Shown piece by piece: positions 3,735 to 24,089 of a DNA stretch of 64,000 nucleotides. A model generated the notes under the pieces. That model searched no databases. It was given only the letters and a program-made list of their open reading frames with translations, and had not been told where the DNA came from. The DNA is from an uncultured Gammaproteobacteria bacterium (GTDB lineage Bacteria; Patescibacteriota; Microgenomatia; UBA10105; UBA927). The translations under genes were made by a program, and so were the position numbers. Each line of letters begins with the position of its first letter. Positions within the stretch are counted from its first letter, which is position 1. The stretch spans positions 705,319 through 769,318 of the forward strand of contig CAZVTT010000001.1 of NCBI GenBank assembly GCA_964629685.1, read 5' to 3'.

Positions 3735-4597
3735 TTTGATTTTTCTCCTTCTAATAGAGCTATCCATAAGCCTAATCCGAAAGACAAATTATATGTTATT
3801 GTTTGAAAAGGATTATTTTTTATGTTTTTGATGAAAAGTGGAAGGAAAATAAGAAATAACATCGGAGAGTAAAATGAGACAATAAATACTGGTATTAATA
3901 CGAAATATGCTAGTACAACAATATCTGACCGTAGTATTTCTCCTCTTCTAGTCTTAAATTTTTTATATAATCTAAATCTAGCTTTACCATATCTGTAGGC
4001 TCTCTTAAATTCAGTTTGATAATTTCCCCAATTGTGGGTAACAATAGCAGTTGAGGCGAATTTAATTTTATATCCAGCAACTATAGCTCTCCATGTGAAA
4101 TCTACATCCGATCCATACTCGAACGTTTCATCGAAATATCCAATTTTGTTAAATACTTCTTTTTTTATTGCAAGATTTATGGTTGGTGCTTCCGAAAGAT
4201 ATTTTTTAGTATTTGATATACGGTCATGATTTCGAAAAGTATTTTGTTTATCAGATATCGTTTTACCAGCAACGATGTTTTCCTTGTCGCTATATATTGG
4301 TTTTAGTAAATTATTTAACCAATCCCTCTGCGGTATACAACTTGCGTCTATAAAGACAATTATTTCTCCTTTTGCGGCTTTTACACCTATATTCCGTTGC
4401 TCCGGAATTGTAATTTTCTTTTTATTTGCATGATACGGGATTACATGTATGTTTTTATTCTCAGGAAAAGATTCCAGCCTGTCAGAACCACTTACAACAA
4501 TAATCTCATGCTGCCTTGTTATATGCTGTTTTAAAATTGTTGCAACCGTTTGATATACGGATCTATCGTTTTTAGTAATTATTATTATTGAAATCAT
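3731..4597 (-). CDS. GT2-family glycosyltransferase
   Basis: 288 aa. MISIIIITKNDRSVYQTVATILKQ...IVFIDASCIP matches GT-A fold GT2 N-terminal motifs. Confidence 0.55.
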   Translation of the reverse strand: MISIIIITKNDRSVYQTVATILKQHITRQHEIIVVSGSDRLESFPENKNIHVIPYHANKKKITIPEQRNIGVKAAKGEIIVFIDASCIPQRDWLNNLLKPIYSDKENIVAGKTISDKQNTFRNHDRISNTKKYLSEAPTINLAIKKEVFNKIGYFDETFEYGSDVDFTWRAIVAGYKIKFASTAIVTHNWGNYQTEFKRAYRYGKARFRLYKKFKTRRGEILRSDIVVLAYFVLIPVFIVSFYSPMLFLIFLPLFIKNIKNNPFQTITYNLSFGLGLWIALLEGEKSK

Positions 4598-6848: not shown

Positions 6849-9061
6849 AGAATTTGATTGTAAACCGTTATAAGTTTATCAATAGTGTTATTCCAGCTAA
6901 ATTTTTTCGAGTATTTGCTTACTTCTCTGCTTAAATGCATCCGCATAGGTACATTATCGATTAAAGTGTCAATGTCATGAGCAAATTGTACTGTGTTATT
7001 TATATTACCAAGAATACCCATACTATTAAGTATTTCCCGTACTTCTGGCGTATCATTCGCCACGATTGGTAGTCCCATTGCCATTGCTTCGAGTAAAACT
7101 AGTGGAAATGCCTCACGCTCTGAAGGTAGAATAAATATATCTGATGCTTTATACATTTCTATAAGCGCATTCCCTTTTAGAGTTCCATGAAATATTACGT
7201 TTGAAAGCTCAAGTTGTTTAGCAATATTTTCAGCTTTGCTTCTCAATTCTCCGTCTCCGACTATATGAAGTTCAACTGAGTTGCGGACGTGTGGTATTAC
7301 GTCAAGCAGTTTGAAAATATTTTTTTGGGTAGTAAGGCGGCCTACAAAAAGTAATTTGATGAACTTTTTAGGGCGAATAGTTCGTTTAAATAAATATTCA
7401 TTTTCAAAACCATTCGGAATTATGGTTATTTTTTCGGTTTTTAATCCATACAATTGTATAACTCTCTTTTTCTGAGTATTGTTTAAGACAATAATTTTGT
7501 TTGCATTTCGTAAAACGCGTTTTAGAAAGAGTTGCTTATATAACGGCAACAAAAAACCTAATTTTCCAGATGCACCCAAATCAATATGTATATGAGCAAC
7601 ATAAGGTATCCCTCTTACTTTAGCTATAAATGCCACAATTTCCGGAAAAAGCGCCTGGGCAATGTGTAAATGGATTATTGATCTTTTAGGTAATGAAAAA
7701 AGTTTTTTGATTAAGCCAAAGGGTATAGGAGTATGCGCAAGTTCAAACGCTTTTAACCGGGTAATTTCAAGTGATTCTGTTTTAAAATGATTATTAAATC
7801 CCAAAGATGTTGTAATCACTGATGTGTTTATATTATTAGCTTTGAGACCAGCAGTGATGTTTTCTACGCATTGTTCCATACCACCTAAGTGTGGGGGGTA
7901 ATATGGAGTGAGTTGAACTATGGATGGAATTCTTTCATTCTTATTCGCAATTTCGGATAACACATCCATATATTTTTGAGTTTTATTCTCCCATTGAAAT
8001 TTACTTGCTGTAATCAACCCGTTAGTTACTAAGTGATTAGCTTTTACTGTCTCTTTGAGCAGCGTACGAATTGCTGTTGCAAGTTCATGTGGATTCCCCG
8101 GTTCAACCAGTAATCCGTTTTTATTATGTGTTATTAGGTGTGGAATCCCGCCAATATTTGAGCCTATTACATTTGTTCCACAAGCCATAGCCTCCAGCAA
8201 TACCATACCGAAGGACTCAGCCTCAGATGTAGATGGTAGCACTAATATATTTGAAGATTGATATTCTTTTACTAAGTCCAGACCATTCCGTCTTCCTACA
8301 AATTTTACATGATTCTCTAGTTCGTAATTAACTGTCTGTTTTTTATATAGATCTACTGCATTCCCATCTCCAACTACGCGGAGATTAAGTGGAAAACCTT
8401 GCATATGTAAGATTTTTATGGCTGAAATTAATGTTGAAAGTCCTTTCCATTTGGTTGCATTGTCTATATTCCCGACGAAAAGTACAGTATTCTTTCGTTT
8501 TTTACCTGCAGCTTTATACTGGTTTAAATCAACTCCAGGTTGAATTAACCAGCTTGATCTAGCAATCGGAGCAATTTTTTCTTTTAAAAACGGTGGAGAT
8601 ATTGCTATTACTGCGTCTGAATTTTTTATTAGTTCTGGCAAAATGTTTTTTTCATAAACATTAATAATCGAATCTACAAGTAAATTGTTTTTTTTCATGC
8701 TCCCGGCATGATAGGTAAGAATAAAAGGGTTATTATTTTTTGCAAGATATGCCATATCCGCCATAAATGGAACGGGTGCGTGAGCATTAATAATGTCTGG
8801 CTTTTCTTTTTTAATAATTTCCCGTAAGTGAAAGTACCAATTCGGGTTTATTGGGGTATTCGAGAGTTTAAACAGCGTTGGTAGTCTATATATTTTTATA
8901 CCGTCCAAGGTTTCAGTAGTTATGGATTTATTATCAGACGAAGTCACTACAACAATCTCCATATGATAATCAAAACAAAGTTTTTGAGCTATTGAATATA
9001 CGTATCGTTCCAACCCTCCTACAGAAGGATAGAAATACGGAGTTGTAATAAGTATTTTCAT
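6845..9061 (-). CDS. Tandem double GT4 glycosyltransferase (GT4-GT4 fusion)
   Basis: 738 aa. Two GT-B units are present. The first begins MKILITTPYFYPSVGGLERYV and contains ...VLPSTSEAESFGMVLLEAMACGTNVIGS. The second begins SIVQLTPYYPPHLGGMEQCV and contains ...ILPSEREAFPLVLLEAMAMGLPIVA. Each carries an E-x7-E-like motif. Confidence 0.6.
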   Translation of the reverse strand: MKILITTPYFYPSVGGLERYVYSIAQKLCFDYHMEIVVVTSSDNKSITTETLDGIKIYRLPTLFKLSNTPINPNWYFHLREIIKKEKPDIINAHAPVPFMADMAYLAKNNNPFILTYHAGSMKKNNLLVDSIINVYEKNILPELIKNSDAVIAISPPFLKEKIAPIARSSWLIQPGVDLNQYKAAGKKRKNTVLFVGNIDNATKWKGLSTLISAIKILHMQGFPLNLRVVGDGNAVDLYKKQTVNYELENHVKFVGRRNGLDLVKEYQSSNILVLPSTSEAESFGMVLLEAMACGTNVIGSNIGGIPHLITHNKNGLLVEPGNPHELATAIRTLLKETVKANHLVTNGLITASKFQWENKTQKYMDVLSEIANKNERIPSIVQLTPYYPPHLGGMEQCVENITAGLKANNINTSVITTSLGFNNHFKTESLEITRLKAFELAHTPIPFGLIKKLFSLPKRSIIHLHIAQALFPEIVAFIAKVRGIPYVAHIHIDLGASGKLGFLLPLYKQLFLKRVLRNANKIIVLNNTQKKRVIQLYGLKTEKITIIPNGFENEYLFKRTIRPKKFIKLLFVGRLTTQKNIFKLLDVIPHVRNSVELHIVGDGELRSKAENIAKQLELSNVIFHGTLKGNALIEMYKASDIFILPSEREAFPLVLLEAMAMGLPIVANDTPEVREILNSMGILGNINNTVQFAHDIDTLIDNVPMRMHLSREVSKYSKKFSWNNTIDKLITVYNQIL

Positions 9062-10206: not shown

Positions 10207-10956
10207 CTACAATGATTCTTCCTGTATTTGTCGAAGTTTTAACGGACGACGCGGATGAGGAGGTTGCCAGGAAAGATTTGTTATCAGCATGTGCATGATT
10301 TTGTAGCCGTCCCGGATAGAATCTATTTTTGACATCCCTTTGCGTTGGTCGTAGGTAATCGGAACAGAATATATTTTGTATCCCAGCTTTACCATTTTGG
10401 TAATCATTTCCATTTCCACGGCAAATCCGTTGGCATTTATATGTGGTTTTAGTACGTCTACTACTTCTTTTTTCCAGGCAAAATACCCGCTTAACACATC
10501 CGTAATATTGGCTTTGTAAAACTGCCGTACCATAAAGGTAAACATCCAGTTAGCTACACGGTGCTGAAAGCTGAGTGCATTGGCGTTTAATTTTCCACCC
10601 AATCGTGAACCCACGATTACATCACAAAAGTTACTGGACAATGGTTCGATAAGACGCAGTATCTCACTGGGTTTGTATGTATGATCCCCATCCAACATCA
10701 CTACATATCCGGCATCTTTGCTTACGGCGTTAAACCCTGCGCGGAGTGCATGGCCTTTGCCTTTGTTCCGTTCATGAATTATTTTTACTCCGAATTCTTT
10801 GGCTACTGCGGCGGTTTTATCGGTAGAATTGTTATCGATTACGATTACTTCCGTTTCCAGGCCATATCCCAGCATTTCCGCACGAGGGATTTCGGCCAGA
10901 ACGTGGCCGATACCGTCTTCTTCATTATGGCAGGGGATTAGAATAGAAATTTTCAT
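10207..10956 (-). CDS. GT2 polyprenol-phosphate sugar synthase (DPM1/GtrB-like)
   Basis: 249 aa. MKISILIPCHNEEDGIGHVLAEIP...VIVIDNNSTDKTAAVA...VVMLDGDHTY is the classic DPM1-like pattern. Confidence 0.6.
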   Translation of the reverse strand: MKISILIPCHNEEDGIGHVLAEIPRAEMLGYGLETEVIVIDNNSTDKTAAVAKEFGVKIIHERNKGKGHALRAGFNAVSKDAGYVVMLDGDHTYKPSEILRLIEPLSSNFCDVIVGSRLGGKLNANALSFQHRVANWMFTFMVRQFYKANITDVLSGYFAWKKEVVDVLKPHINANGFAVEMEMITKMVKLGYKIYSVPITYDQRKGMSKIDSIRDGYKIMHMLITNLSWQPPHPRRPLKLRQIQEESL

Positions 10957-11539: not shown

Positions 11540-13081
11540 CTATTGTATCAGATCTTTAATCATCCCCTCGATGGTCCTATTGGTATCGAAGAGTATTCCC
11601 ACCACTGATTGTTCGGGGACAGCAATTTTCATCGAAAGCGTGGTGTTTGCCGTTAAACTTTTAGCACCAAGTAATGTAAAACCGTCTTGTATATTTGAAG
11701 CTACATACGCACGGGCACGGACGTATCCTTTATATGGAGGGTTATTAATATTAACTGTAACTTCTTTTGGCGAATATTCGTCATTCACCAGAATAATACC
11801 GGTTTCGTTTCTGCTGTTTTTAAAAGCTAGTTGTGCAGCTAGATCTTTACCAGTAGAAAGAAAAATTCTACTATCGCCATTACCCAAACCAAGTGTTTTG
11901 CTTAAGAGTATCCAGCTTTTTGACTGAGGCAATAGTGTGGCTTGGTCATTTGTCCAACGGTAAAATGCATATTTTTCCTGGTCTATATTCGAATTTTTTG
12001 CATTTACCGGTTCAATAACGTGATAACTCGTACCTTTTATGCCATTTGTAAGGTAGTAGATAAGCCTTTTGGAAGTAAACGGTATAGCTAAATACGTATT
12101 GGTGTTGGGACTTGGTCTTCCTATATTCGTAGCAAAACTCCATTCTGTTACAAAAACAGGTAGGTCCTGACGGCCTCGCGAAAGCAATGTTTTTTGAATA
12201 ATTGGTAAGGCATCGTCATTTACGCCATAGTAATGGTAACTTACGAAATCGATATTGTTGGCAGTTCTTGGATCGACCAGAATCGTTTGTAAAATAGTGT
12301 TATTTTTTACATTCGAAAGCGTGGGACCTCCGATGGGTATCCGTTTCCCGTCGTTCATTTCTGCATCTACTTCCCTGATTGCCGTGGAAGCATAGTAATA
12401 AATGTTCGCATATGCCTGTTCTTTGGACATCCCACTGTTTTTTAAATCCAGAAATCGGGGATGATCTGGTTCGTTCCAAATTTCTATGTAATCAATTTTA
12501 GGACGAAAGTATTTATACGCTTTTTTTACAATATCTTTATAAACATCCCAGTCTTTTGGTACGCCGAACGTGGTTCCTGAGTACGTTAACCAGCTCGGAG
12601 CATAGGAAACTATGGCTATAGTAGTTAGGTTTCTGGATCGGGCATTATCAAAAAATATTTCCCTGCTTGCGATATTCGCTTTATTCCAATTTGTAACGTC
12701 CTGAATTCCGTTTACGTTCGCTTTATATGATTCCAAGGTAGTGTCTTTATGAAAAAAATATTCGAGTAAAAAGTCTTTTCGTATGGCTGTAACGCCCGCC
12801 GCAGTAATTTTATTCCACGCATCCTGGTGTTCCGGAAGGGGGGCATGGGCGCCGCCAAATACCAGAGGAGAACCTGTGGAAATTTGTTGGGCATAGTCTG
12901 CGTTCACAGTTGCAGTGGTGCTGGTAATTCCCAGTACGTCCGAGGTTCTATATACAATAAACTTACCTGATCGATATACCTGCTTGTATTCAGATATACC
13001 CGAGCTGAGAATCCTACCAATGGATATTGAAGCAATAATTAAGAGTACGAAAAATATGATTTTGGGTGGATTCAATTTCAT
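11540..13081 (-). CDS. Membrane-anchored glycoside hydrolase, clan GH-A (GH5/GH39-like)
   Basis: 513 aa with an N-terminal TM anchor. IEIWNEPDHPRF looks like an NEP acid/base motif. PVFVTEWSFAT looks like a TE(W) nucleophile motif. Confidence 0.45.
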   Translation of the reverse strand: MKLNPPKIIFFVLLIIASISIGRILSSGISEYKQVYRSGKFIVYRTSDVLGITSTTATVNADYAQQISTGSPLVFGGAHAPLPEHQDAWNKITAAGVTAIRKDFLLEYFFHKDTTLESYKANVNGIQDVTNWNKANIASREIFFDNARSRNLTTIAIVSYAPSWLTYSGTTFGVPKDWDVYKDIVKKAYKYFRPKIDYIEIWNEPDHPRFLDLKNSGMSKEQAYANIYYYASTAIREVDAEMNDGKRIPIGGPTLSNVKNNTILQTILVDPRTANNIDFVSYHYYGVNDDALPIIQKTLLSRGRQDLPVFVTEWSFATNIGRPSPNTNTYLAIPFTSKRLIYYLTNGIKGTSYHVIEPVNAKNSNIDQEKYAFYRWTNDQATLLPQSKSWILLSKTLGLGNGDSRIFLSTGKDLAAQLAFKNSRNETGIILVNDEYSPKEVTVNINNPPYKGYVRARAYVASNIQDGFTLLGAKSLTANTTLSMKIAVPEQSVVGILFDTNRTIEGMIKDLIQ

Positions 13082-13443: not shown

Positions 13444-13472
13444 TTGACAGGATATGTGAGGAATGATACAAT
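13444..13472 (+). promoter_or_regulatory. Sigma70-type promoter: -35 TTGACA, 17-nt spacer, extended -10 TGaTACAAT
   Basis: TTGACA occupies 13444-13449. TGATACAAT occupies 13464-13472. The spacer is exactly 17 nt. It lies immediately upstream of the HTH gene and the large plus-strand operon. Confidence 0.55.
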
Positions 13473-13509
13473 GCCGGCCTATAAGTTTCGTTCTTATCTC
13501 GGTATTCTC

Positions 13510-13695
13510 ATGAGCTCAGACCAAGATCAACAATTTCTCACCGTAAAGGAAATAGCCAGATTTTTGAAGCTAAATCCGCTTACGATCTACGATTATATTC
13601 ACCTCAAACGCCTTCCGGCCGTTAAGTTTGGCCGCTACTATAGGGTAAGCAAATACGATTTACACAAGTTTATACAGAGTCAAAAAGTACGCTAA
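13510..13695 (+). CDS. Small helix-turn-helix DNA-binding protein (excisionase/MerR-type, HTH_17-like); a putative regulator
   Basis: LTVKEIARFLKLNPLTIYDYIHLKRLPAVKFGRYYRVSKYDLHKFI fits the excisionase-family HTH. The ATG at 13510 was chosen as start. The track ORF begins at a TTG (13444) that is actually the -35 hexamer. Confidence 0.5.
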   Translation: MSSDQDQQFLTVKEIARFLKLNPLTIYDYIHLKRLPAVKFGRYYRVSKYDLHKFIQSQKVR

Positions 13696-13697
13696 CC

Positions 13698-15992
13698 ATG
13701 AAAAAACCGACACTTTCCATTGTCATACCGGTATATAACGAAGAAGGGAACGTTAAACTTCTGCTGGAACGGATTAGCATGGCTATGAAGTCGGCAGGAA
13801 TAAAATACGAAGTCGTATTCATAGACGACCATTCTACCGATAAGACCGTAGAGATAATTAAATCCCTTTCTACCTCGTATCCGTTATCGCTCCTGAAAAA
13901 GAAAAAAGGTATGGCCCGCGGTAAAGCCAGCTCACTTCTGGCCGGATTTGCCTTTGCGAAAGCCGACGTTATTACCATGATCGATGCGGATTTGCAGTAT
14001 CCGCCCGAGGCTATTATTCCCATGTTTGAGAAAATCCTGCATGGAGCAGGGGTCGTAATCGCCAACCGCAAAAAACGTAAAACGGGATTTATCCGACAGG
14101 CAGCCAGCTTATCGTACCGCTACGTATTCGGAAACATCCTTTTGGGTTTTAAACATGACGTGCAGTCGGGGTTAAAAGTATTCCGCAAAGAAATAATCGA
14201 GCGGGTAGCTATAGCACCCAGCCAATGGATGTTTGACCTGGAATTTCTGGTCTTTGCCCGGGATGCGGGATACATTATTGAATCCCATGACATAGAATTT
14301 GCCCCGCGGCACACCGGTGCGGCCAAGATTAACGTGGTGACAGCTGCCGTAGAAATGGCACTCGCAGCAGTACAATTACGCGTCCGGAAAGACAATATTA
14401 TTCCGTTTCACGCTGAAACCAAAGAAAAACACGGAAACGGTTTCCATTTTAAAGGTCTGCCGTTCGTGAGTTATTCCGGCCTAAAACACTACGAAACTGC
14501 TTTTTTCCGGCTTTCTATCCGCCAAACCCTCTGGATTATCGGATTTTTGCTTATTTTAGCCGGAGCACTCATGATTTCGTGGCATGCGACCCTCGTCGGA
14601 CTCGTGGCACTGTTAACCGTGCTGTACTTTGTGGACATGGTGTTTAACTTTTCCCTTGTTCTCCGCAGCGTATCAAAAGATCGTGAGCTCATGATCGACG
14701 ATGAAGATACCAAAATTGCACCTGTTGGCGGTTGGCCGAAATACACTATTTTCTGCCCGCTTTATAAAGAATGGCAGGTTATTCCGCAGTTCGTCCGGGC
14801 TATGAGCCAACTGGATTATCCCAAAGACAAACTGCAGGTTATGCTCTTACTAGAAGAAGACGATACCGCCTCGGTAGAAAAAGTCGCCGAAATGGAATTA
14901 CCAAGCTACTTTACCGTGAAGGTTATTCCGCATAACAAGCCCAAAACGAAGCCCAAAGCGCTCAATTTCGGCTTACGCTATGCGACAGGGGAATATTCGG
15001 TCATTTATGATGCGGAAGACATTCCGGACCCGCTGCAGCTGAAAAAAGCCGTTCTGGCCTTTAAACGGTCTCCGTCTACGGTAAAGTGTATTCAGGCCAA
15101 GCTCAATTTCTATAATCCGCGTCAGAATTTACTGACTCGGATGTTTACCACGGAATATTCTTTGTGGTTCGACTTGGTGTTACCCGGATTACAGTCCATA
15201 GAAGCTCCTATTCCATTGGGAGGCACCTCCAATCACTTCCGCGTGTCGGATTTGCATATTCTGGGGGGCTGGGATGCCTTTAACGTGACCGAAGACTGTG
15301 ATTTGGGTATCAGGCTAGCCAAACGGGGATACCATACCGCCATCGTCAACTCAACCACTATGGAAGAAGCCAACAGTTCACTCTTGAACTGGTACGGTCA
15401 GCGTAGTCGGTGGATAAAGGGCTACATTCAGACATATATGGTTCACATGCGGGATCTGAGCCAGTTTTCGTTCTCCCGGGATAATCCTAACGGTTTTACC
15501 TTTCAGATGGTGGTGGGTGGCAAGATTTTGTCTTTGTTCATTAATCCGTTTATGTGGCTGATTACCATTAGCTACTTTTCGTTTAGGGCCACACTCGGAC
15601 CGATTATCGAAACATTCTATCCATTACCCGTGTTGTACATGGGTGTATTTTCCCTGGTATTCGGAAATTTCCTTTATATGTATTCATACATGATCGGCTG
15701 TTTCCGCCGGGAAGAATACGGACTGGTAAAGTTTGCCCTCATAACGCCATTGTACTGGCTGGCTATGAGCGCGGCAGCCTGGAAAGCCGTATGGGAAATA
15801 GTGTTTAACCCGCATTACTGGCACAAAACTACGCATGGGCTACATTTGGCTAAACAGCCTGAAGCTGCCGGTGCACATCGGTTCGGAATTGTGCAAAAGG
15901 TAAAAAAACATTTAGCCGCGCGTCGACAAAAAGCCAGACATTCACAGATCCTGCCACCGTATCGGAATATAGTCCATCCGAACGTTTCATAA
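13698..15992 (+). CDS. Two-domain GT2 fusion: an N-terminal DPM1/GtrB-like polyprenol-phosphate sugar synthase and a C-terminal processive beta-glycan synthase-like GT2 (PgaC/NodC/cellulose-synthase type), with multiple TM helices
   Basis: The N-terminal domain reads MKKPTLSIVIPVYNEEGNV...FIDDHSTDKT...MIDADLQYPP. A TM hairpin follows. The second domain carries DAED, TEDCDLG and the GQRSRWIKGY (QxxRW) motif. C-terminal TM helices follow that. Confidence 0.65.
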   Translation: MKKPTLSIVIPVYNEEGNVKLLLERISMAMKSAGIKYEVVFIDDHSTDKTVEIIKSLSTSYPLSLLKKKKGMARGKASSLLAGFAFAKADVITMIDADLQYPPEAIIPMFEKILHGAGVVIANRKKRKTGFIRQAASLSYRYVFGNILLGFKHDVQSGLKVFRKEIIERVAIAPSQWMFDLEFLVFARDAGYIIESHDIEFAPRHTGAAKINVVTAAVEMALAAVQLRVRKDNIIPFHAETKEKHGNGFHFKGLPFVSYSGLKHYETAFFRLSIRQTLWIIGFLLILAGALMISWHATLVGLVALLTVLYFVDMVFNFSLVLRSVSKDRELMIDDEDTKIAPVGGWPKYTIFCPLYKEWQVIPQFVRAMSQLDYPKDKLQVMLLLEEDDTASVEKVAEMELPSYFTVKVIPHNKPKTKPKALNFGLRYATGEYSVIYDAEDIPDPLQLKKAVLAFKRSPSTVKCIQAKLNFYNPRQNLLTRMFTTEYSLWFDLVLPGLQSIEAPIPLGGTSNHFRVSDLHILGGWDAFNVTEDCDLGIRLAKRGYHTAIVNSTTMEEANSSLLNWYGQRSRWIKGYIQTYMVHMRDLSQFSFSRDNPNGFTFQMVVGGKILSLFINPFMWLITISYFSFRATLGPIIETFYPLPVLYMGVFSLVFGNFLYMYSYMIGCFRREEYGLVKFALITPLYWLAMSAAAWKAVWEIVFNPHYWHKTTHGLHLAKQPEAAGAHRFGIVQKVKKHLAARRQKARHSQILPPYRNIVHPNVS

Positions 15993-15995
15993 CGT

Positions 15996-18488
15996 ATGTG
16001 GCAGATCAGATCGTTCGTACTATCCGGGCGCAAGCAGTTGTCTGCCAGTATAAAAACGGGCGGCGCATTTATTGCTGCCTCCATGATCGCCAATGTCGTG
16101 AACTTCCTCTACAGCGCATATCTGGGGCGTATTAGCGGATTTGAAGAGTTTGGACTTATCAGCTTGATTGCCAGCTTTCTGAATCTTTCGCAAATTCCGC
16201 TGCAGGCGTATTCCAGCACTATTTCCCACCGCACTTCGTATCTGTTCGGAAAATACGGAACACCGGCCAAGCCGTTTTGGGCTCATTTTCGGGGAGGAGC
16301 ATTAAAGCCGGCGTTACTGCTCAGTGGTGCCTGGCTGGTACTTATTCCGTTTATGGCGGCATTCTTTCAGACGGACAGATTGTTGCCGTTCTTACTGTTT
16401 ACTCCTATCTGGAGCGTAGGGGTAGCTGCTGCCGTAGATTCCGGCTTTTTGAGCGGGTCCATGCGGTTTAATACGCTGGCGGCCATGATGCTCTCCGAAG
16501 TTTCAGTGAAGTTTGCGGTAACAGTACTTATGGTGCTGATAGGCCTACCGCAATATGTGTATGTTGCGATTCCCGCCGGGATCATAACGTCGTACGTTAT
16601 CGGATGGCTCGTAGCGCGGGGGATTGTAACCAAACATATAGCACACGCGGATTTTCATTCTACCGTGTTGCCACGACGGTTTTATGCGTCATCCTTTTTA
16701 AGCAAGGTTTCCTTGGTAGCGTTTTTAACCATGGATGCCATGCTGGCCAAACATTATTTGCCGCCGAAAGAAGCGGGGCAGTATGCACTCCTTTCCCTGG
16801 TGGGAAAAATGGTATTTTTTATGGGAACATTATTTACTCAGTTCCTCACACCCCTGATCAGCAAGCATGAAGGTGCAGGCAGGAATTCGACTAAAATTTT
16901 TTGGGTAATATTACTACTCACCACTGCTGCAGTGTTGGGCGGCGTTACTACCGTCGGCGTATTCGGATATATTACTATTCCGTTCCTGTTGGGACCCAAA
17001 GCCTGGGACATTGTGGCGTATTTGCCCACATATACATTTGCCATGGGTTGTATGGCGATTGCCATGGGTTTTGTTTCGTACCATCAGTCACGACGGGTAC
17101 ACTTGTTCGCGGTTGCCAGCTTCGGCATGTCGCTGATCATGCTTACGGGCATAGTGCTGTGGCACGGATCGGTAGAAGAAATAGCCAAGGTGCTCACGGT
17201 GAGCGGAATTATTTTTCTGATGGTAACCATGTTTCTGCATCGGTTCCATGAGGCGGTTTCCACCGTAATCCGGAATATCCGTGATTTTTTGGAGCTGTTT
17301 CTGGACGATAAGCAAAAACGGGAGGGCATGCCTAATTCCCTCCGGATACTGATATTTAATTGGCGAGATACCCAACATGTTTGGGCTGGAGGAGCCGAGG
17401 AATATATTCATCAGCTCAGCAAACGGTGGGTAAAGGATGGACACAGCGTAACCGTTTTTTGCGGAAATGATCAGAAACACGCCCGGAATGAAGTAATAGA
17501 TGGTGTGCAGATGGTCCGGCGCGGGGGCTTTTACATGGTATATCTGTGGGCGGCACTGTATTATATTTTTCGCTTTCGTGGACAATTTGACGTCATCGTA
17601 GATGCCGAGAACGGAATTCCATTTTTTACCCCGCTTTTCGTGCGCAAACCCACTATATTACTTATTCATCATGTTCATCAGGACGTTTTCCGGGATCAAT
17701 TATGGTTACCGCTCGCCATGCTGGCTACATTCCTGGAAACAAAACTTATGCCCATGCTGTACCGGAATGTCCCGGTCGTAACCGTATCCGAATCATCCAA
17801 AAAAGAAATTCTGCGGGTAGGATTTGGTGTAGCCAATACGGTAACTATTGTGTATCCGGGAATAGAGCCTGAACTGTATAAAACCGTCCGCAAAACTGCG
17901 CATCCGTCAGTGCTATATCTGGGACGATTACGGCCGTACAAACAAGTAGATGTGCTTATCCGGGCATTTGCCAAAGCGCTTTCCGCTCATCCGGAAATGA
18001 AGCTGACGATAGCCGGGGAAGGCGTAAGTTTGAAAGAACTGGAAACACTTGCGAATTCGCTCAATATTTCCCACGCGGTGCAATTTACCGGCCGGGTTTC
18101 GGAACGGGAAAAAGTGGCGTTGCTTGGATCGCACTGGGTTATGGTACAGCCGTCTTCCATAGAAGGATGGGGTATTACCGTGATAGAAGCAAACGCCTGC
18201 GGTACGCCGGTGATTGCGTCTGACGTACACGGATTACGGGATTCGGTCGTAGACGAAAAGACCGGACTATTGGTGCATCCGGGAGACCATCAGAGTCTGG
18301 CTGCTGCCGTATCGTATGTGATTACCCATCATGAAGACCGGAAACAAATGACCGCTGCCGCTCTCGATTGGTCTAAATCATTTGATTGGGATCAAAGTGC
18401 CGCCGTATTTTTACAGGTTCTTAAACGCAGTATTACCGGACATAGAAAAACAATTTCCGGCAGACCAATTACGACTATTGCCCGATAA
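15996..18488 (+). CDS. Wzx-like (MOP superfamily) flippase fused to a C-terminal GT4 glycosyltransferase
   Basis: The first 430 aa or so are polytopic with flippase-like topology. The C-terminal region reads LRILIFNWRDTQHVWAGGAEEYIHQL...VQPSSIEGWGITVIEANACGTPVIASDVHGLRDSVVDEKTGLLV, which is the GT4 EX7E region. Confidence 0.6.
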   Translation: MWQIRSFVLSGRKQLSASIKTGGAFIAASMIANVVNFLYSAYLGRISGFEEFGLISLIASFLNLSQIPLQAYSSTISHRTSYLFGKYGTPAKPFWAHFRGGALKPALLLSGAWLVLIPFMAAFFQTDRLLPFLLFTPIWSVGVAAAVDSGFLSGSMRFNTLAAMMLSEVSVKFAVTVLMVLIGLPQYVYVAIPAGIITSYVIGWLVARGIVTKHIAHADFHSTVLPRRFYASSFLSKVSLVAFLTMDAMLAKHYLPPKEAGQYALLSLVGKMVFFMGTLFTQFLTPLISKHEGAGRNSTKIFWVILLLTTAAVLGGVTTVGVFGYITIPFLLGPKAWDIVAYLPTYTFAMGCMAIAMGFVSYHQSRRVHLFAVASFGMSLIMLTGIVLWHGSVEEIAKVLTVSGIIFLMVTMFLHRFHEAVSTVIRNIRDFLELFLDDKQKREGMPNSLRILIFNWRDTQHVWAGGAEEYIHQLSKRWVKDGHSVTVFCGNDQKHARNEVIDGVQMVRRGGFYMVYLWAALYYIFRFRGQFDVIVDAENGIPFFTPLFVRKPTILLIHHVHQDVFRDQLWLPLAMLATFLETKLMPMLYRNVPVVTVSESSKKEILRVGFGVANTVTIVYPGIEPELYKTVRKTAHPSVLYLGRLRPYKQVDVLIRAFAKALSAHPEMKLTIAGEGVSLKELETLANSLNISHAVQFTGRVSEREKVALLGSHWVMVQPSSIEGWGITVIEANACGTPVIASDVHGLRDSVVDEKTGLLVHPGDHQSLAAAVSYVITHHEDRKQMTAAALDWSKSFDWDQSAAVFLQVLKRSITGHRKTISGRPITTIAR

Positions 18489-18490
18489 AT

Positions 18491-19552
18491 ATGAAAAACC
18501 AACAAAAACCACCGGTAGAAGCGTCCATGATCACCAAATTATTTTCCGTGGTGTGGGCTCAATTCGGATTAGTTTGGGATAAGGCCAGGGGTATAGTCGT
18601 GGTGCCACATTTGCCTGACAGAGTAGAAGGATATCAATTTGTCCGGAGAATTCAGCCGGAAAAATCCGGCCCGATTGCCGTCGGCGTCTACGTGAACAAC
18701 CGCGGTGAACAGATTGCCGTAAAAGTGTGGGAAGGGCGATATAAAACCCGGGCGTATTTCGAAACAATACACGAAATTATTACCGTGTGGACGTTAAACC
18801 AGGTGGCTAAACGCGTGCATTTACGGATTCCGGCCGCCATTCGCCATGTAAACGTACCGAACGTGGTGACGTTCGAAGTTGCACCCCAAAAATTATTACT
18901 GGCCACGGAATGGAGTCATGGTGATTTATTTAAGACCGCAACTCCACAACAGCAGATTTCGTTATACGAACAGTGCCGGCAGTATTTTACGGCCTTATCC
19001 GCACATATTACTCCGGCGGAGCGCCGGGTATTCGGAGATAAAACCCGGAATTATATTTTCTGGTTATATCCGGCAATAATTCTGACTGCCTGCTTCCGGC
19101 ATCCGGAACTGATTCCGCCTATTCTGGGCGGTGCCATGAATACATTAAACGGGTTTAGGTATTTGGCCTCGGAGTTGGAACAGGGACTGGTGCATGGTGA
19201 TTTACACGGAAATAACGTGTTGTGGAATCAAAAAGAAACGGTGATTGTCGATACGGCGAACGTGATGTGGAGTTATACCATAATAGAATATTTAGCGACG
19301 TTGGCCTCTCCGTTAACCCCGAAAGCCCTGGAGGAATATGTAGCCATGACCGTGCGGGACCAGGTAAATAAAACGGTAAAACAGCGGGTAGCCGGAAAAT
19401 TCATATCTGCATTTATCGGTATATTCGACCTGACCATCAGACTTACGCCGGCGCATATGAACGCAGCATTACGGTTGGTGCGGGGAGAGTATTTCCCGAA
19501 TACCGTCACGGCGTTGCCGACAGCATCGAAAGTAAAACAGGTACGGGTTTAA
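18491..19552 (+). CDS. Protein-kinase-fold phosphotransferase (APH/Kdo-kinase-like); a putative glycan or small-molecule kinase
   Basis: IAVKVWEG provides a VAIK-like lysine. HGDLHGNNVLW is a Brenner/HRD-like catalytic loop. IVDTANV is a DFG-equivalent. Confidence 0.5.
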   Translation: MKNQQKPPVEASMITKLFSVVWAQFGLVWDKARGIVVVPHLPDRVEGYQFVRRIQPEKSGPIAVGVYVNNRGEQIAVKVWEGRYKTRAYFETIHEIITVWTLNQVAKRVHLRIPAAIRHVNVPNVVTFEVAPQKLLLATEWSHGDLFKTATPQQQISLYEQCRQYFTALSAHITPAERRVFGDKTRNYIFWLYPAIILTACFRHPELIPPILGGAMNTLNGFRYLASELEQGLVHGDLHGNNVLWNQKETVIVDTANVMWSYTIIEYLATLASPLTPKALEEYVAMTVRDQVNKTVKQRVAGKFISAFIGIFDLTIRLTPAHMNAALRLVRGEYFPNTVTALPTASKVKQVRV

Positions 19553-19554
19553 CT

Positions 19555-20271
19555 ATGAACTTAAAACAAATACTATTCTCATCACCCCTATTTTCTTTAT
19601 TCGGGAAGGTGGTGCGTATGCTAAAGCCGAAATCATCCTTTCGGCTGGGTACAAAAACGACTATACCGTTAAGCACAAAATACGGATTGGATCGGGGTAC
19701 ACCGGTAAACCGATATTGGATAAAAAAAGCTATAGCGTTATGGAAATCCGATATCAGGGGAACGGTACTGGAAATAGGCGACCGCCGTTATACGTCCGAA
19801 TTTGGTGGGCAGGCAGTTAAGCGGTCGGATATCCTGGATATAGTAAAAACAAACTCGGCTGCCACTATTATCGGCGATCTGCGGAATGTAAAAAAACAAA
19901 TTAAGAACAATACCTACGACTGTATTATCCTGACGCACGTATTGGGGATGATAGATGATTATTCTGCGGCCATCCGGGAATGTCACCGGATACTTAAACC
20001 GGGTGGAGTATTGCTGGTTACCGTAGCCGCGTTTAGCCCGGTACTTGAACAGGCAAGCTCGTACTGGCGATTTACCGAGGCAGGTGCCAAATATGCATTC
20101 TCAGGTGTGTTTTCGAAAACAACAGTACAAAGTTACGGAAACGTATACAGCGGACAGGCATTTTGGGTGGGAATGTCGCAGGAAGAACTCACGCGGGAAG
20201 AGCTTGATTTTGACGATGAGCGGTATCCCTGTGTCATTGCCATTCGGGCGGTGAAGGAGGACAACGTATGA
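19555..20271 (+). CDS. Class I SAM-dependent methyltransferase
   Basis: VLEIGDRRYTSEFGG is a glycine-rich motif I. LKPGGVLLVTV is a post-motif II feature. Confidence 0.55.
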   Translation: MNLKQILFSSPLFSLFGKVVRMLKPKSSFRLGTKTTIPLSTKYGLDRGTPVNRYWIKKAIALWKSDIRGTVLEIGDRRYTSEFGGQAVKRSDILDIVKTNSAATIIGDLRNVKKQIKNNTYDCIILTHVLGMIDDYSAAIRECHRILKPGGVLLVTVAAFSPVLEQASSYWRFTEAGAKYAFSGVFSKTTVQSYGNVYSGQAFWVGMSQEELTREELDFDDERYPCVIAIRAVKEDNV

Positions 20272-21194
20272 AGGCGTCCTTAAAAACCGTGACGGTAATA
20301 ATTCCGGCGCATAATGAGGCCGGCCAATTAAAAGACTTGCTTGGGGAAATACTTCAGCAAAAGCTGGTAAGCGGTGTGCTGAAGAAAATAATCGTATATT
20401 CGGACGGCAGTACTGACGGGACGGTTGCAGTGGTGAAGGGCCTGAAGGATTCCCGTTTGGAACTCCTGGTAGGAAAAACACAAAAAGGCAGAGCCGTCAG
20501 ACAAACACAGATGATGCAGACATGTACGTCTGATATTCTGATATTGCTGGATGCCGATATTGTCCTTACGGACGTAAATACCCTGGAACACCTGATTAAG
20601 CCTATTAGCACCGGAAAGGCAGAGCTTACTGCTGCGGCTATCCGGAATTTACCCCCTCAGACCTGGATAGAAAAAACGCTTTCCGCCAGTATGGAGCTGA
20701 AACATGAAATTTTCGCGTCGTGGAAGCAGGGAATAAATATATACAGCTGCACCGGACCGGCCAGGGCTATGGCTAAAACGTTTTACCGCAGTCTGCGGTA
20801 TAGTCATAGTGACGGGGAAGATATGTATACGTATTTGTCCTGCGTGAGTAAGGGGTTTCGGTTTGTGCCGGTACCATCATCCGTCGTGTATTACCGTCTG
20901 CCCACTAATCTGGCGGATTACTTTAAGCAATCGAAACGGTTTATATTTGCTCCCCAATATCTGTACGCTGAATTCGGAGAACACGCCGTACGCCGCGAAT
21001 TTGCAATACCGATATTTCACTCCGTCATTTGTTGCCTGAAAGCGGCACCGGGTATGTGGCACAAGGTGGGATATGTGTTGTCATACGTACTGGTTTTAGT
21101 AAGCAGCAGAATATTGAGTACATTCCGACCGAAGGTATCGGAAACCTGGCAGGCAAGTTCAACCAAAACGGTACGGGCGGGAGGGGCGGTATGA
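20268..21194 (+). CDS. GT2-family glycosyltransferase
   Basis: VTVIIPAHNEAGQLKDLLGEILQQ...LLDADIVL. The start ATGA-overlaps the upstream stop. Confidence 0.55.
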   Translation: MKASLKTVTVIIPAHNEAGQLKDLLGEILQQKLVSGVLKKIIVYSDGSTDGTVAVVKGLKDSRLELLVGKTQKGRAVRQTQMMQTCTSDILILLDADIVLTDVNTLEHLIKPISTGKAELTAAAIRNLPPQTWIEKTLSASMELKHEIFASWKQGINIYSCTGPARAMAKTFYRSLRYSHSDGEDMYTYLSCVSKGFRFVPVPSSVVYYRLPTNLADYFKQSKRFIFAPQYLYAEFGEHAVRREFAIPIFHSVICCLKAAPGMWHKVGYVLSYVLVLVSSRILSTFRPKVSETWQASSTKTVRAGGAV

Positions 21195-22012
21195 ACTGGC
21201 GGAGGAGACAGGTACTGCTGGCGGTATTTCGGGTCGTACGGTCCGGTATTTATCGGAGTTTGGCAACCTGGGATAAAGTGTGGGGAAATCAGAACCCGCT
21301 GGCTATATATTGTTATCACAGTATCGGCGATGACTGGCGGTTTAGCGTGCGGCAGTCCGAATTAAAAAAACAGTTATTTTACCTGGCCGGGCAAGGTACA
21401 CCCGTAACGCTTTCAGACGTCGAAGCCTACCTGCAGGGACGCAAAGAACTACCCCGACCGGCATTTGCCATTACGTTTGATGACGGCTATGCCGATATAT
21501 TTGAAAGCAAACACCTCTTTCGGCGGTTGGGGATTCGGCCGACTGTTTTTGTATTAAGTGACCGTAAGGCCGCCAACAGAAATATACTGGCCACCGAAAA
21601 GCCGTTACTTGAACCGGTGCAGATTAAATCATTGCGGAAATCGGGTTGGTACATAGGTTCACACAGCGCCACGCACAGCGTACTCACGAATTTAAATAAA
21701 GACAGATTACGGCACGAAATAACCGATTCCAAGCGGAAATTACAACGGATGATAGGTGCACCGGTGCGGTTTTTTTCCTATCCCAAAGGGAAATATTCCA
21801 ATTCGGTGATAGAAACTGTCAACCGGGCGGGGTACACCATTGCCGTATCCATGGATGACGGATTAATAGGGCGGGATACTTCCCGGGTACACGTACCCAG
21901 AATAGGCGTTGATCAGACACACAGTTTTTCGGAGTTTACTACCCTGGCTTCACCGTCTGTGGTGGCGTTCCGGAATATGGTAAAGCGTTCTGCCTTCGGT
22001 AAATACGTATGA
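21191..22012 (+). CDS. Polysaccharide deacetylase (NodB homology domain, CE4)
   Basis: AITFDDGYADIFE and IGSHSATHSVLTNL give the TFDDG and H-x-x-x-H motifs. The start was set at the ATG at 21191, which ATGA-overlaps the upstream stop; the track ORF at 21029 would overlap the previous gene by 165 nt. Confidence 0.65.
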   Translation: MNWRRRQVLLAVFRVVRSGIYRSLATWDKVWGNQNPLAIYCYHSIGDDWRFSVRQSELKKQLFYLAGQGTPVTLSDVEAYLQGRKELPRPAFAITFDDGYADIFESKHLFRRLGIRPTVFVLSDRKAANRNILATEKPLLEPVQIKSLRKSGWYIGSHSATHSVLTNLNKDRLRHEITDSKRKLQRMIGAPVRFFSYPKGKYSNSVIETVNRAGYTIAVSMDDGLIGRDTSRVHVPRIGVDQTHSFSEFTTLASPSVVAFRNMVKRSAFGKYV

Positions 22013-23196
22013 AACAAAAACAGATACATGCCGTTGTGAAATATTTTTATCCGGTGGCAGCCGGTATAGAAACAAACATGCTGGAAACGTACAGCGTGTT
22101 GGTACAACGCGGCTGGAACGTAACCGTACACACGTCTACGAACACCCTTACGGAAGAGAACATATTACCGTCAGCGGAAGAGGTTCGCGGTATCCAAGTA
22201 CAAAGGTATCGGTACAACTGGTGGAGTTTCTGGCCGCAGTTACCCTGGGATAGTGCGGATGTGATCGCTCTGCACAATTTTAATGTTATTCCCCACGGGT
22301 TTTTATTATTCTATGCCTGGTGGCGGAAGATTACCGGTAAACGCGTACCCGTGATGATTCTTACTCCACACGGCGGGTATACCCCTGACTGGTTAATATT
22401 CCATCCGGTAGTGGCTTGGGCAAAGCGAATGTATCACGCGACGGTGGGTCTCTGGTTGATCAGGATGGCCTTAAATGGTATCCGGGCTGTGTCTGAGTGG
22501 GAACGGTTGGAAATAGCCGGTATGGGCGTTCGTACGGCCTTAATCCGGGTAATTGCCAATGGGATAGAAGACGAAGCCTACGGAAATGTAGATCACGAGG
22601 CCGGTGATCGGATTAAAAAACGAGTGAAAGGGTTCGGGAAATACCTGATTCAGATAGGCAGAATTTACGATATAAAAAATTACGAAACGGTATTGCAGGC
22701 GTTAACACAAATGCCTGCGGATATTAACTTTGTAATTGTCGGGCCGGTGGGAAGTAATGAGTATTTAGCATCGCTCAAACGGTTGATTGCGGATCTGCAT
22801 CTGGAAAATAGAGTGTTTTTTGCCGGCGTCGTGCGCGGCTATGATAAATACTACCTCATCAAACACGCTGCCATGATGGTCCATATGGCACGTTGGGAAA
22901 GTTTCTGTAATGCCGTACATGAAGGCATGAGTCAGGCTCGTGTGTGTATCGTGGCAGATAATACGGCGCTGAGATTTTTGGTGGAAGACGGGATAAACGG
23001 GTATCGGGTTCCGACTACAGACAGTACGGCATTGGCAAATAAAGTGCTGTATGTACTGGATAAAAAACATGCAGCAGAAATAACCAAAATTACGGCTACG
23101 GCTAAGAAATTTGCTCTGGCACACTCCTGGAAAAACGTGGCCATAACTATCGAATCCTGGTTAATTGATTTACTGTCGGAAAAGGAGCGGAAATGA
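22009..23196 (+). CDS. GT4-family glycosyltransferase
   Basis: 395 aa. The N-terminus HAVVKYFYPVAAGIETNMLETYSVLVQRGWNVTVHT is GT-B-like. A C-terminal GT4-like region is present. The start ATGA-overlaps the upstream stop. Confidence 0.5.
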   Translation: MKQKQIHAVVKYFYPVAAGIETNMLETYSVLVQRGWNVTVHTSTNTLTEENILPSAEEVRGIQVQRYRYNWWSFWPQLPWDSADVIALHNFNVIPHGFLLFYAWWRKITGKRVPVMILTPHGGYTPDWLIFHPVVAWAKRMYHATVGLWLIRMALNGIRAVSEWERLEIAGMGVRTALIRVIANGIEDEAYGNVDHEAGDRIKKRVKGFGKYLIQIGRIYDIKNYETVLQALTQMPADINFVIVGPVGSNEYLASLKRLIADLHLENRVFFAGVVRGYDKYYLIKHAAMMVHMARWESFCNAVHEGMSQARVCIVADNTALRFLVEDGINGYRVPTTDSTALANKVLYVLDKKHAAEITKITATAKKFALAHSWKNVAITIESWLIDLLSEKERK

Positions 23197-24089
23197 AATT
23201 AACGCGGACCATTACCATAGGGATTCCGGCATACAACGAATCAGCCAATATTGTAAAACTGATTGAGGCAGTACAGGCTCAAAAGTTGTCCGGCTTCAGC
23301 ATAAAAGAAATATTGGTCATTTCGGATGCTTCAGAAGATAATACGGATTCACTGGTCCGGTCGGTGCATGATTCCCGGGTCAAATTGTTCCGGAATCGTA
23401 CCAGGCAGGGGCAATCATTGTCGCAAAATATACTGTTAAAAAAGGCTACCGGTGACGTACTGGTATTACTGAATGCCGATACGCTTCCTGCAAATCCGTA
23501 TGCAGTTCAAAAACTGGCCGAAACGATCATGGATGGCGCGGATTACGCTATTGCCCGGGCTTGGCCGGTAGCGGCACGTACCTGGTTTGAACGGGTCATT
23601 AATTACAGTGTGTATTTGCGGACGGCCATTTTCGAACGGTTTCCAAATTATGACACCATTTATTTGTGTGGCGGCCGGGGCAGGGCTATGAGTCAGCGGC
23701 TGTACCGTAAGTTCCGCTGGAAGAAAGTGTTTACGGAAGACGTTTTCGCGTTTCTTTACTGCAAAAAATACGGGTTTAAAACCCAATATCAGCCGAAATC
23801 GGTCATTCTTTTCCGATCGCCAATAGACTGGCATGATCACAGCAAGCAAAGTCGTCGTTTCCGAGCCGGGCCGGAAGAACTGTTTCCGTATTTTGGCGAA
23901 GAAACGGTGCGTCAGTCATTTAAACTCCCGCTATCCGTAGCCGTGCCACCTATCCTTTTTTACCTGTTGCGGCACCCGTTGTGGTCTTTGGCTTACCTAA
24001 GCGTCTATCTGTTTACTAAATTGGCAGCTCCCCCACAAGCTACCGCCACGTGGTCGGTGTCTACGTCATCGAAGGGGCTAACATCATGA
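23193..24089 (+). CDS. GT2-family glycosyltransferase
   Basis: ITIGIPAYNESANIVKLIEAVQAQ...VLLNADT. Confidence 0.55.
   Translation: MKLTRTITIGIPAYNESANIVKLIEAVQAQKLSGFSIKEILVISDASEDNTDSLVRSVHDSRVKLFRNRTRQGQSLSQNILLKKATGDVLVLLNADTLPANPYAVQKLAETIMDGADYAIARAWPVAARTWFERVINYSVYLRTAIFERFPNYDTIYLCGGRGRAMSQRLYRKFRWKKVFTEDVFAFLYCKKYGFKTQYQPKSVILFRSPIDWHDHSKQSRRFRAGPEELFPYFGEETVRQSFKLPLSVAVPPILFYLLRHPLWSLAYLSVYLFTKLAAPPQATATWSVSTSSKGLTS

Follow-up and report, generated by a model that had tools for sequence, protein, structure and literature searches.

We have identified a gene for a covalent fusion of two family 2 glycosyltransferases (GT2) in a 64-kb stretch of DNA from the Patescibacteria, hereafter called the window. 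The gene lies at 13698-15992 on the + strand, begins with ATG, ends with TAA and is one uninterrupted open reading frame (ORF) for a predicted bifunctional GT2-GT2 membrane protein of 764 amino acids (aa). On the basis of sequence comparison and a structural model, we consider it nearly certain that this protein is an inner-membrane enzyme in which a polyprenyl-phosphate transferase (aa 1-235) precedes a processive GT2 synthase (aa 245-725). Judged from database sequences, fusions of a GtrB-type enzyme with such a synthase are common in Patescibacteria. Both domain families and the logic of three-component glycosylation are already well known. In the searchable literature we found neither a description of the covalent GtrB-synthase combination nor of the network of fusions around it, and no synthase-dependent polysaccharide of Patescibacteria.

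The original prediction had described a GT2-GT2 fusion at this position, and translation recovered the ORF at the same coordinates with both GT2 regions. In the Pfam annotation, Glycos_transf_2 covers aa 7-169 (protein E 8.6e-41), and separate GT2 matches cover aa 347-651, namely Glyco_tranf_2_3 at aa 347-575 (1.4e-27) and Glyco_trans_2_3 at aa 435-651 (1.5e-21). All of the motifs that had been quoted for the two halves are found (PxxNE at aa 11-15, DD at 43-44, DADLQY at 96-101, DAED at 438-441, TED at 531-533 and QRSRW at 568-572), and they are invariant or nearly so across 114 aligned fusion proteins. This alignment consists of the window protein and 113 orthologs with the same two-domain architecture, which a search for orthologous fusions had brought together, and its members are 53-64% identical to the window protein. 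Mean identity across the 114 fusions is 50% in the N-terminal half and 62% in the C-terminal half. The AlphaFold2 model of the 764-aa protein, computed from these 114 sequences, has a pLDDT of 91.5 and a pTM of 0.89.

A frameshift that splits the gene in two is ruled out as well, for the same 764-aa protein occurs in three assemblies and the orthologs share its architecture. In the two further independent assemblies the protein is identical, and the stop codon and the downstream gene are also the same. A sequencing or assembly error that joined two genes is practically excluded by the three assemblies, the best 120 database matches and dozens of metagenome contigs. A word-indexed database search found 3533 relatives at E<=1e-10; both domains are present in all of the best 120, which are 54-64% identical to the window protein and nearly all 698-780 aa long, with five at 854-1322 aa. 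The lineage names among these best 120 include Patescibacteria, Saccharimonadales, Levybacteria and Gottesmanbacteria, and the database labels on the fusion proteins read just 'glycosyltransferase' or 'XagB'. When a genome collection was scanned with the single protein, four loci were found in total, the closest match being a Woesebacteria metagenome-assembled genome, which places the window in a Microgenomates-type Patescibacterium; the wider set of loci discussed below came from a metagenome scan with the alignment as the query.

By sequence and model, the N-terminal domain (aa 1-235; 13698-14402, + strand) is a DPM1/GtrB/ArnC-type polyprenyl-phosphate glycosyltransferase domain with a GT-A fold. 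In a sequence search of the Protein Data Bank (PDB), aa 5-210 matched the Pyrococcus dolichol-phosphate-mannose synthase (PfDPMS, 5mlz) with an E of 9e-25, followed by ArnC and GtrB. Foldseek against the PDB superposed the N-terminal half on PfDPMS 5mlz with an rmsd of 2.5 Å over 237 columns, and on ArnC and GtrB with 2.5-3 Å. Among the NCBIfam models, PgfS, ArnC, AglJ-type (E 5e-12) and dolichyl-phosphate hexose transferase models matched this half, all far below their curated cut-offs. The metal/donor and dolichol-phosphate residues of PfDPMS were taken from PMC5526996, and the residues were mapped through a HMMER alignment onto the positions described there. At the donor/metal site, D96, D98 and Q100 correspond to PfDPMS D89, D91 and Q93, with the DADLQY of the window protein aligned with 89-DADLQH-94; D98 is invariant in the 114 sequences, D96 and Q100 are each kept in 113, and E15, the counterpart of PfDPMS E12, is conserved. 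At the acceptor-phosphate site, R124 (PfDPMS R117) is kept in all 114 proteins, R133 (R131) in 112 and S137 (S135) in 97, and in the acceptor loop R204 (R202) is kept in all 114 and K210 (K208) in 112. PfDPMS K178 is not kept in the 114 fusions, the aligned residue being T, A or M. In the model, amphipathic interface helices lie at aa 131-148 and 213-229, the positions of IFH1 and IFH2, and aa 207-229 are moderately hydrophobic.

According to hydropathy and the model, this domain has no transmembrane (TM) anchor of its own, whereas GtrB and ArnC carry two C-terminal TM helices and PfDPMS carries four. TM-less DPM1 enzymes exist, such as human DPM1, and thus TM helices of their own are not essential to the members of the DPM1 family. 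Considering that the donor and acceptor residues of PfDPMS are conserved, we regard the N-terminal region as an independent, apparently catalytic domain of the DPM1/GtrB type, as had been proposed, and not as a generic extension of a synthase. The reaction predicted from sequence and model is transfer of a sugar from a nucleotide-sugar donor to polyprenyl (undecaprenyl) phosphate (Und-P), at the cytoplasmic face of the membrane.

The synthase module opens with a beta-hairpin motif, GFHFKG..F (aa 246-257; 14433-14468, + strand), for which the model has strands at aa 248-251 and 254-257. In this motif, G246, G248, F249, H250 and G253 are at least 90% conserved in the 114 fusions, and it is found also in the GtrB-less homologs P0138 and P0145. 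It is followed by a TM hairpin, TM1-TM2 (aa ~275-321; 14520-14660, + strand), seen in hydropathy and as a helix at 274-326 in the model, which would put both catalytic domains on the cytoplasmic side. A TM hairpin after the N-terminal domain had been described before and is indeed present, but by homology it is part of the synthase module. The beta-hairpin and the TM hairpin are assigned to the synthase module because the synthase homologs that have no N-terminal domain begin there.

The processive-synthase-like GT-A core occupies aa 345-583 (14730-15446, + strand). Its catalytic motifs, D389, D438-A-E-D441, T531-E-D533 and, on an interface helix, Q568-R-S-R-W572, are invariant in the 114 proteins, D389 being the exception with 113. 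The C-terminal membrane helices, placed by hydropathy and the model, cover aa 598-703 (598-628, 630-640, 643-670 and 674-703; 15489-15806, + strand). After the last helix comes a P-x-x-W-x-K-T-x-H-G motif (aa 705-717; 15810-15848, + strand), invariant in the alignment of the 114 fusions; W-x-K-T-T-H also aligns in E. coli NfrB, and by analogy the segment W708-x-K-T-x-H713-G may correspond to the FxVTxK gating loop of cellulose synthases. The remaining tail (aa 718-764) is basic and disordered, with low pLDDT at 728-750.

In the PDB sequence search, aa 344-582 matched BcsA (E 3e-16), and the Foldseek matches of the C-terminal half were BcsA, hyaluronan synthases and PcManGT (template-modelling score 0.73, target-normalised). 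PDB 9fmv and 9fmz are among the Foldseek matches through their BcsA chain. The superposition on BcsA 4p00 gave an rmsd of 6.1 Å over 452 columns, the window protein having only ~4-5 TM helices. With BcsA, class I hyaluronan synthase, PgaC/IcaA and NodC/chitin synthase, the C-terminal half shares the GT-A core, the D/DxD/TED/QxxRW motifs and the interface and TM helices. It differs from them in that smaller number of TM helices, in W-x-K-T-x-H possibly taking the place of FxVTxK and in the extra N-terminal catalytic domain; it also has no PilZ domain and no PgaD-like partner. Membership of two curated families was rejected, with 109.8 bits against a cut-off of 422.3 for the PgaC/IcaA equivalog (TIGR03937) and 87.7 bits against 699.1 for the BcsA/CelA equivalog (TIGR03030). 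The synthase half is predicted, again from sequence and model, to polymerise a nucleotide-sugar and to pass the chain across the membrane.

When 1.84 billion representatives were searched exhaustively with HMMER, 2528 matched at E<=1e-30, and the architectures were taken from the best 150. These include plain GtrB-synthase fusions of the window type, a GtrB-less synthase fused to a GT4, and 'mega-fusions' of 1100-1611 aa in which the fusion runs on into an ortholog of the next gene (polytopic domain and GT4). They also include proteins of ~1300 aa that combine a C-terminal synthase with three or four N-terminal MshEN c-di-GMP receptor domains (P0183, P0194); these are ~50% identical to the synthase module, and the MshEN repeats replace the GtrB-like domain. 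The latter family is apparently large and matches no curated NCBIfam model. Since close homologs carry MshEN repeats, we consider the module to be an exopolysaccharide synthase with interchangeable N-terminal accessory domains. MshEN-GT2 proteins have been noted in PMC5013675, and E. coli NfrB is a characterised MshEN synthase (PMC8669469). Membership of the NfrB family was rejected, as E. coli NfrB is just 25% identical (E 1e-9); its MshEN domain stands at the C-terminus, the opposite arrangement to P0183 and P0194, and the window protein has none.

The next gene of the window (15996-18488, + strand) encodes 830 aa with a polytopic, putatively Wzx/MOP-like domain (aa ~1-455) and a GT4 (aa ~465-810, from GT4 Pfam matches). 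At 15990-15998, the TAA stop of the fusion gene, a CGT codon and the ATG of this gene follow one another in frame. One open frame of ~1370-1600 aa takes the place of the two genes in at least 13 metagenome contigs, giving a polypeptide with a GtrB-like domain, a synthase, a Wzx-like domain and a GT4, that is, three glycosyltransferase domains and a flippase-like domain; the loci named are L015, L018, L020-L022, L024-L026, L034, L035, L037 and, on the minus strand, L009. A read-through artefact as their source was rejected, as the standard code leaves these frames open in at least 13 independent contigs and the stop in the window is TAA. In L009 (1-13000), two copies of the system stand head to head: the minus-strand copy is a mega-fusion of 1369 aa, and the plus-strand copy has a stand-alone 262-aa GtrB-like gene directly before a 742-aa fusion gene, plus a GT-C gene.

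The cluster headed by the fusion gene also contains a GT-C-fold glycosyltransferase of 529 aa (M529; 29393-30982, + strand). It matches Pfam PMT_2 with 26.8 bits against a cut-off of 26.1, and its AlphaFold2 model has a pLDDT of 89.8 and a pTM of 0.90. In Foldseek, each of the 23 PDB matches at E<=0.001 is a GT-C enzyme (DPY19, STT3, ArnT, AglB, ALG9, AftA and Pmt4), with PglB just above that threshold. A PDB sequence search with the GT-C family profile gave no match, and fold comparison alone placed M529 among structures. An invariant Y-G-D-x-E-S-H motif lies at its aa 52-58.

To describe the fusion network, reference domains of the window were compared with 87 related loci by tblastn, and the open frames were read directly. 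Downstream of the synthase module there is either the Wzx-like and GT4 gene or an M529 homolog, adjacent or fused, and the synthase, GtrB-like and GT-C modules are fused in all three pairwise combinations. The GtrB-like domain and the synthase are fused as in the window in ~40 loci. The synthase and the GT-C share a single ORF in 11 loci, where a GtrB/DPM1-like gene comes next in L051, L053, L054 and L066 and lies just upstream in L049. A synthase gene followed by a 1107-aa GtrB-like and GT-C fusion is found in L043 and L044, and the synthase, GT-C and GtrB-like genes stand unfused in a row in L074 and L078. Synthase-GT-C fusions are abundant in Ktedonobacteraceae (Chloroflexota), and in two Ktedonobacteria genomes the gene after the synthase-GT-C joins a GtrA-type membrane domain (GtrA_DPMS_TM) to a GtrB-type GT2. 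The compact Chloroflexota version (L088 8001-14517; L089 6205-13004) consists of a ~1200-aa synthase and GT-C protein, a GtrA-domain and GtrB-like gene, and a gene for a GH5-mannosidase or for GH113 (beta-mannanase family), which may hint at a mannan product there. In bacteria of the PVC group, the gene after a stand-alone synthase encodes a polytopic protein of ~500 aa with a weak relationship to the GT-C family (79% probability in hhalign). Twelve GtrB-fused loci have 7 kb or more of downstream sequence, and 9 of these carry a downstream homolog of M529 or of the polytopic proteins M510 and M528 described below. This linkage of genes and fusions is directly established, as are the folds, the catalytic motifs and their conservation.

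The original prediction had taken the covalent fusion to suggest that the two enzymes act jointly by substrate channelling, with the synthase perhaps priming on the lipid-linked sugar or using it. Coupling is supported by the fusion being conserved in 114 proteins and by GtrB-like genes lying beside unfused synthases in other lineages. The proposed use of the sugar by the synthase is unsupported; the comparative evidence points to a GT-C consumer, which is fused to the synthase in Chloroflexota and to the GtrB-like enzyme elsewhere. These gene arrangements suggest that the lipid-linked sugar is consumed by an outward-facing GT-C enzyme modifying the polymer, and not by the synthase itself.

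We therefore tentatively favour a reading in which the synthase-dependent polymer is decorated, during or after its export, by a built-in GtrB/flippase/GT-C three-component system. As a class, GT-C enzymes use polyprenyl-phosphate-linked donors at the outer face of the membrane, and GtrB-type enzymes make such donors. Three-component systems of GtrB, flippase and GT-C decorate glycans after export, and in the system of PMC11127046 the flippase belongs to the MOP superfamily (MATE). The decoration reading is favoured because of this donor logic, because of that precedent and because the N-terminal domain of 10 of 17 next-gene orthologs matches Pfam Polysacc_synt (best E 4.4e-10); three match Polysacc_synt_3 (best 2.8e-13). 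Local precedent is given by the window itself, which holds two classical pairs of a DPM1-like GT2 beside a GT-C gene. The following account of substrates, flipping, GT-C acceptor and polymer is inferred. The N-terminal domain would make an Und-P-sugar while the synthase would make and export the backbone. A flippase, in this lineage probably the Wzx/MOP-like domain of the next gene, would move the Und-P-sugar outward, and the GT-C enzyme at 29393-30982 would transfer the sugar to the emerging polymer or its acceptor. Further steps may be contributed by the GT4 domain, the pyruvyl transferase and the CE4 deacetylase of the cluster, and the recurrence of this deacetylase is a hint that the polymer is one of N-acetyl-hexosamine.

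Several observations weigh against decoration by a built-in system. The window copy of the Wzx-like domain gives no Pfam match, and its hhalign comparison with the bona fide Wzx of the window is insignificant. In other phyla, the identity of the GtrB-like partners to the N-terminal domain is no more than 23-28%, which makes them independent recruitments rather than orthologs, and for some synthase homologs the available sequence contains no recognisable GtrB or GT-C neighbour. In the window, M529 is found ~13 kb downstream of the fusion gene rather than next to it. The same linkage pattern, including the three pairwise fusions, is equally expected if the Und-P-sugar made by the N-terminal domain primes the synthase, which elongates and translocates the chain, and the GT-C enzyme moves the Und-P-polymer en bloc to cell wall, protein or lipid. 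We consider this second explanation, which extends the idea of the original prediction, to be the main rival, though unlikely overall, and slightly less likely still is its fuller form, a previously undescribed, self-contained route in which the lipid-linked polymer is exported and ligated to the envelope by the GT-C enzyme with no phosphoglycosyl transferase. A DPM1-like initiator is conceivable, since the scan of window ORFs detected no Bac_transf or MraY-like phosphoglycosyl transferase. The oligosaccharyltransferases STT3, AglB and PglB are among the best structural matches of M529, and PcManGT, the good structural match of the C-terminal half, is a minimal cellulose-synthase-like enzyme. 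Also in favour of priming, a lipid-linked primer is extended by the Salmonella O:54 synthase WbbF. Further precedents are DPM1-like enzymes by which a glycan is begun on a lipid monophosphate; the AglJ-type match of the N-terminal domain belongs here, as does AepG, which makes dolichyl-phosphate glucuronic acid (Dol-P-GlcA) for an archaeal (Haloarcula) exopolysaccharide (PMC9943897). However, priming leaves the GtrA-type partners in Chloroflexota and the Wzx-like partners in the candidate phyla radiation unexplained; these point to separate flipping of a small lipid-linked sugar, a step that priming does not need. Moreover, many close synthase homologs have MshEN repeats instead of the N-terminal domain, like ordinary primer-independent exopolysaccharide synthases.

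The fusion may also be no more than a membrane anchor and a means of co-expression, with the N-terminal domain feeding a general pool of Und-P-sugar for the many GT-C enzymes of the surrounding glycan island, which would glycosylate proteins or the cell wall. The missing TM helices of this domain, three other TM-less DPM1-like genes and at least eight GT-C-like genes in the window agree with such loose coupling, and so does the distance of M529 from the fusion gene. On the other hand, loose coupling does not readily account for the independent synthase-GT-C fusions, and the GtrB-GT-C fusions beside synthase genes, found in other phyla; the fusion and its catalytic residues are maintained across 114 proteins, and the pTM of the model suggests a fixed arrangement of the domains. 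On balance we regard loose coupling as improbable. Two GT-A domains in one chain also recall the co-polymerases, such as the Pasteurella hyaluronan/heparosan synthases and the E. coli K4 chondroitin polymerase, in which both domains add alternating sugars to one chain, and K4CP and PmHS2 are indeed among the Foldseek matches. They superpose poorly, with an rmsd of 19-24 Å and template-modelling scores of 0.2-0.3, against the 2.5-3 Å obtained with PfDPMS, ArnC and GtrB, and the best sequence matches of the N-terminal half are all polyprenyl-phosphate transferases. Given this poor superposition and the retained lipid-phosphate-binding residues of PfDPMS, we rejected the co-polymerase as very improbable.

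The decoration reading can be compared with systems already characterised, in which, as the original prediction had pointed out and as both general knowledge and our literature searches agree, the donor synthase and the polymer synthase are separate. The GtrA/GtrB/GtrC-type systems (O-antigen glucosylation in Shigella and Salmonella, CsbB-GtcA-YfhO, GacI-GacL and the pentofuranose system of Citrobacter, PMC11127046) share with the window a GtrB/DPM1-fold GT2, a candidate flippase, a GT-C transferase and their genetic linkage. These known systems consist of separate proteins and decorate Wzy- or ABC-transporter-dependent glycans or teichoic acids, whereas in the window a processive synthase is covalently attached to the GtrB-like enzyme, whose own TM helices have been lost. 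The Pga, Pel and Bcs systems have a CE4 deacetylase and a glycoside hydrolase nearby, as in the window cluster. BcsA-BcsG, which makes phosphoethanolamine cellulose, is alike in concept only: there the synthase is physically linked to a membrane protein by which the growing polymer is modified on the outside from a lipid donor. BcsG, however, is not a GT-C enzyme, takes phosphoethanolamine from a phospholipid rather than a sugar from a polyprenyl phosphate, and has no donor-making enzyme fused to it. A DPM1/GtrB-type GT2 is also tied to an extracellular polymer in Haloarcula (AepG), in Haloferax (AglJ) and in Lactobacillus johnsonii, where a GtrB/GtrA-like pair is needed for glucan (PMC7117936), but there the proteins are separate and no processive synthase is involved. 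For Southlakia epibionticum, a cultivated Saccharibacterium, the supplement of PMC10633639 lists SEML1_0793, an 863-aa fusion of a PfDPMS-like GT2 with a GT-C, as non-essential by transposon sequencing (Tn-seq), and SEML1_0125, a 564-aa BcsA-like GT2, as essential. The Southlakia Tn-seq 'EPS' genes SEML1_0081-0083 were rejected as a counterpart, as they form an ordinary Wzx/Wzy cluster.

The fusion gene heads a tightly packed + strand cluster (13444-32235) in the order promoter, HTH_17, fusion, Wzx-like and GT4, APH-like kinase, methyltransferase, GT2s, CE4, GT4, pyruvyl transferase, three polytopic proteins and CarboxypepD_reg. The sigma-70-like promoter (13444-13472, + strand), recognised by consensus match alone, reads TTGACA-17 nt-TG-TACAAT with 11 of 12 matches. 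The HTH_17 (excisionase/MerR-like) protein (13510-13695, + strand; Pfam HTH_17 E 1.7e-13) is small, at 62 aa, and its stop lies 2 nt ahead of the fusion ATG. The TTG listed as the start of its ORF coincides with the -35 box of the near-consensus extended -10 promoter (13444-13534); the gene probably starts at ATG 13510, which gives 62 aa as against the 61 aa of the L006 ortholog. In L006, L007, L008, L010, L019, L020, L030 and L031, the gene directly before the fusion or synthase gene is an HTH_17 homolog.

The APH-like kinase-fold protein (18491-19552, + strand; Pfam) recurs after the MOP-GT4 gene in related loci. The CE4 polysaccharide deacetylase (21029-22012, + strand), which among curated models comes closest to PgaB-type N-deacetylases but scores far below their cut-offs, recurs in L007, L015, L018, L035, L037 and L059. 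As listed from TTG 21029, its ORF overlaps the preceding GT2 gene by 165 nt (20268-22012), and the true start is probably further downstream. The polysaccharide pyruvyl transferase (24050-25303, + strand) has counterparts in L006 and L010. Two paralogous polytopic membrane proteins of 510 aa (M510) and 528 aa (M528) are encoded at 26288-29403 (+ strand) and are 31% identical to each other. Neither has a Pfam match, and hhalign found no relation of M528 to the GT-C family; M528 homologs precede the GT-C gene in several related clusters. The conserved cluster is closed by a CarboxypepD_reg-like domain protein (30982-32235, + strand), which is found after the GT-C gene in L006, L029, L033, L042 and L062. 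On the opposite strand, a divergent clan GH-A-like glycoside hydrolase (11540-13081, - strand) has weak GH39/GH5 matches and is kept in L001, the closest relative; a link to the system is no more than suggested.

The remainder of the window is a glycan island with four more DPM1-like genes, several of them beside GT-C genes. These further DPM1/GtrB-like GT2 genes lie at 10207-10956 (- strand), 43076-44185, 45911-46660 and 53232-53978; three encode TM-less proteins of ~249 aa and one has GtrA_DPMS_TM, and all four are only 26-27% identical to the N-terminal domain of the fusion. Their GT-C neighbours are PMT_2 at 44238-45914 and PTPS_related at 51590-53254. Membrane proteins of the GT-C type or like it (PMT_2, DUF2206, GT87, PTPS_related, YfhO) are encoded at 2181-3767 (- strand), 4599-6848 (- strand), 44238-45914, 46670-47827, 48479-50044, 50037-53254 and 58546-60894, and the density of GT-C-type genes within the island is unusually high, in a genome whose contig is shorter than 1 Mb. 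A 738-aa protein (6845-9061, - strand) consists of two complete GT4 units in tandem. Within the rml set, a 157-aa RmlC-like (dTDP-sugar isomerase) ORF at 37093-37566 also matches Pfam Polysacc_synt_C (E 4.6e-8), which is odd for a soluble epimerase.

In summary, Patescibacteria are a large and mostly uncultivated share of bacterial diversity whose cell-envelope chemistry is almost unknown, and the fusion protein heads a cluster that recurs across several of their lineages. The fusion joins two logics that textbooks keep apart, synthase-dependent polymerisation and lipid-carrier/GT-C glycosylation. The alternative fusions (GtrB-synthase, synthase-GT-C, GtrB-GT-C and synthase-Wzx-GT4) amount to a testable wiring diagram for an uncharacterised pathway. 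If priming and ligation were true, they would represent a new way to start and anchor a polysaccharide, and this route could be the main envelope polymer pathway of otherwise metabolically minimal Patescibacteria. If the decoration reading is true, three-component glycosylation would reach synthase-dependent polymers.

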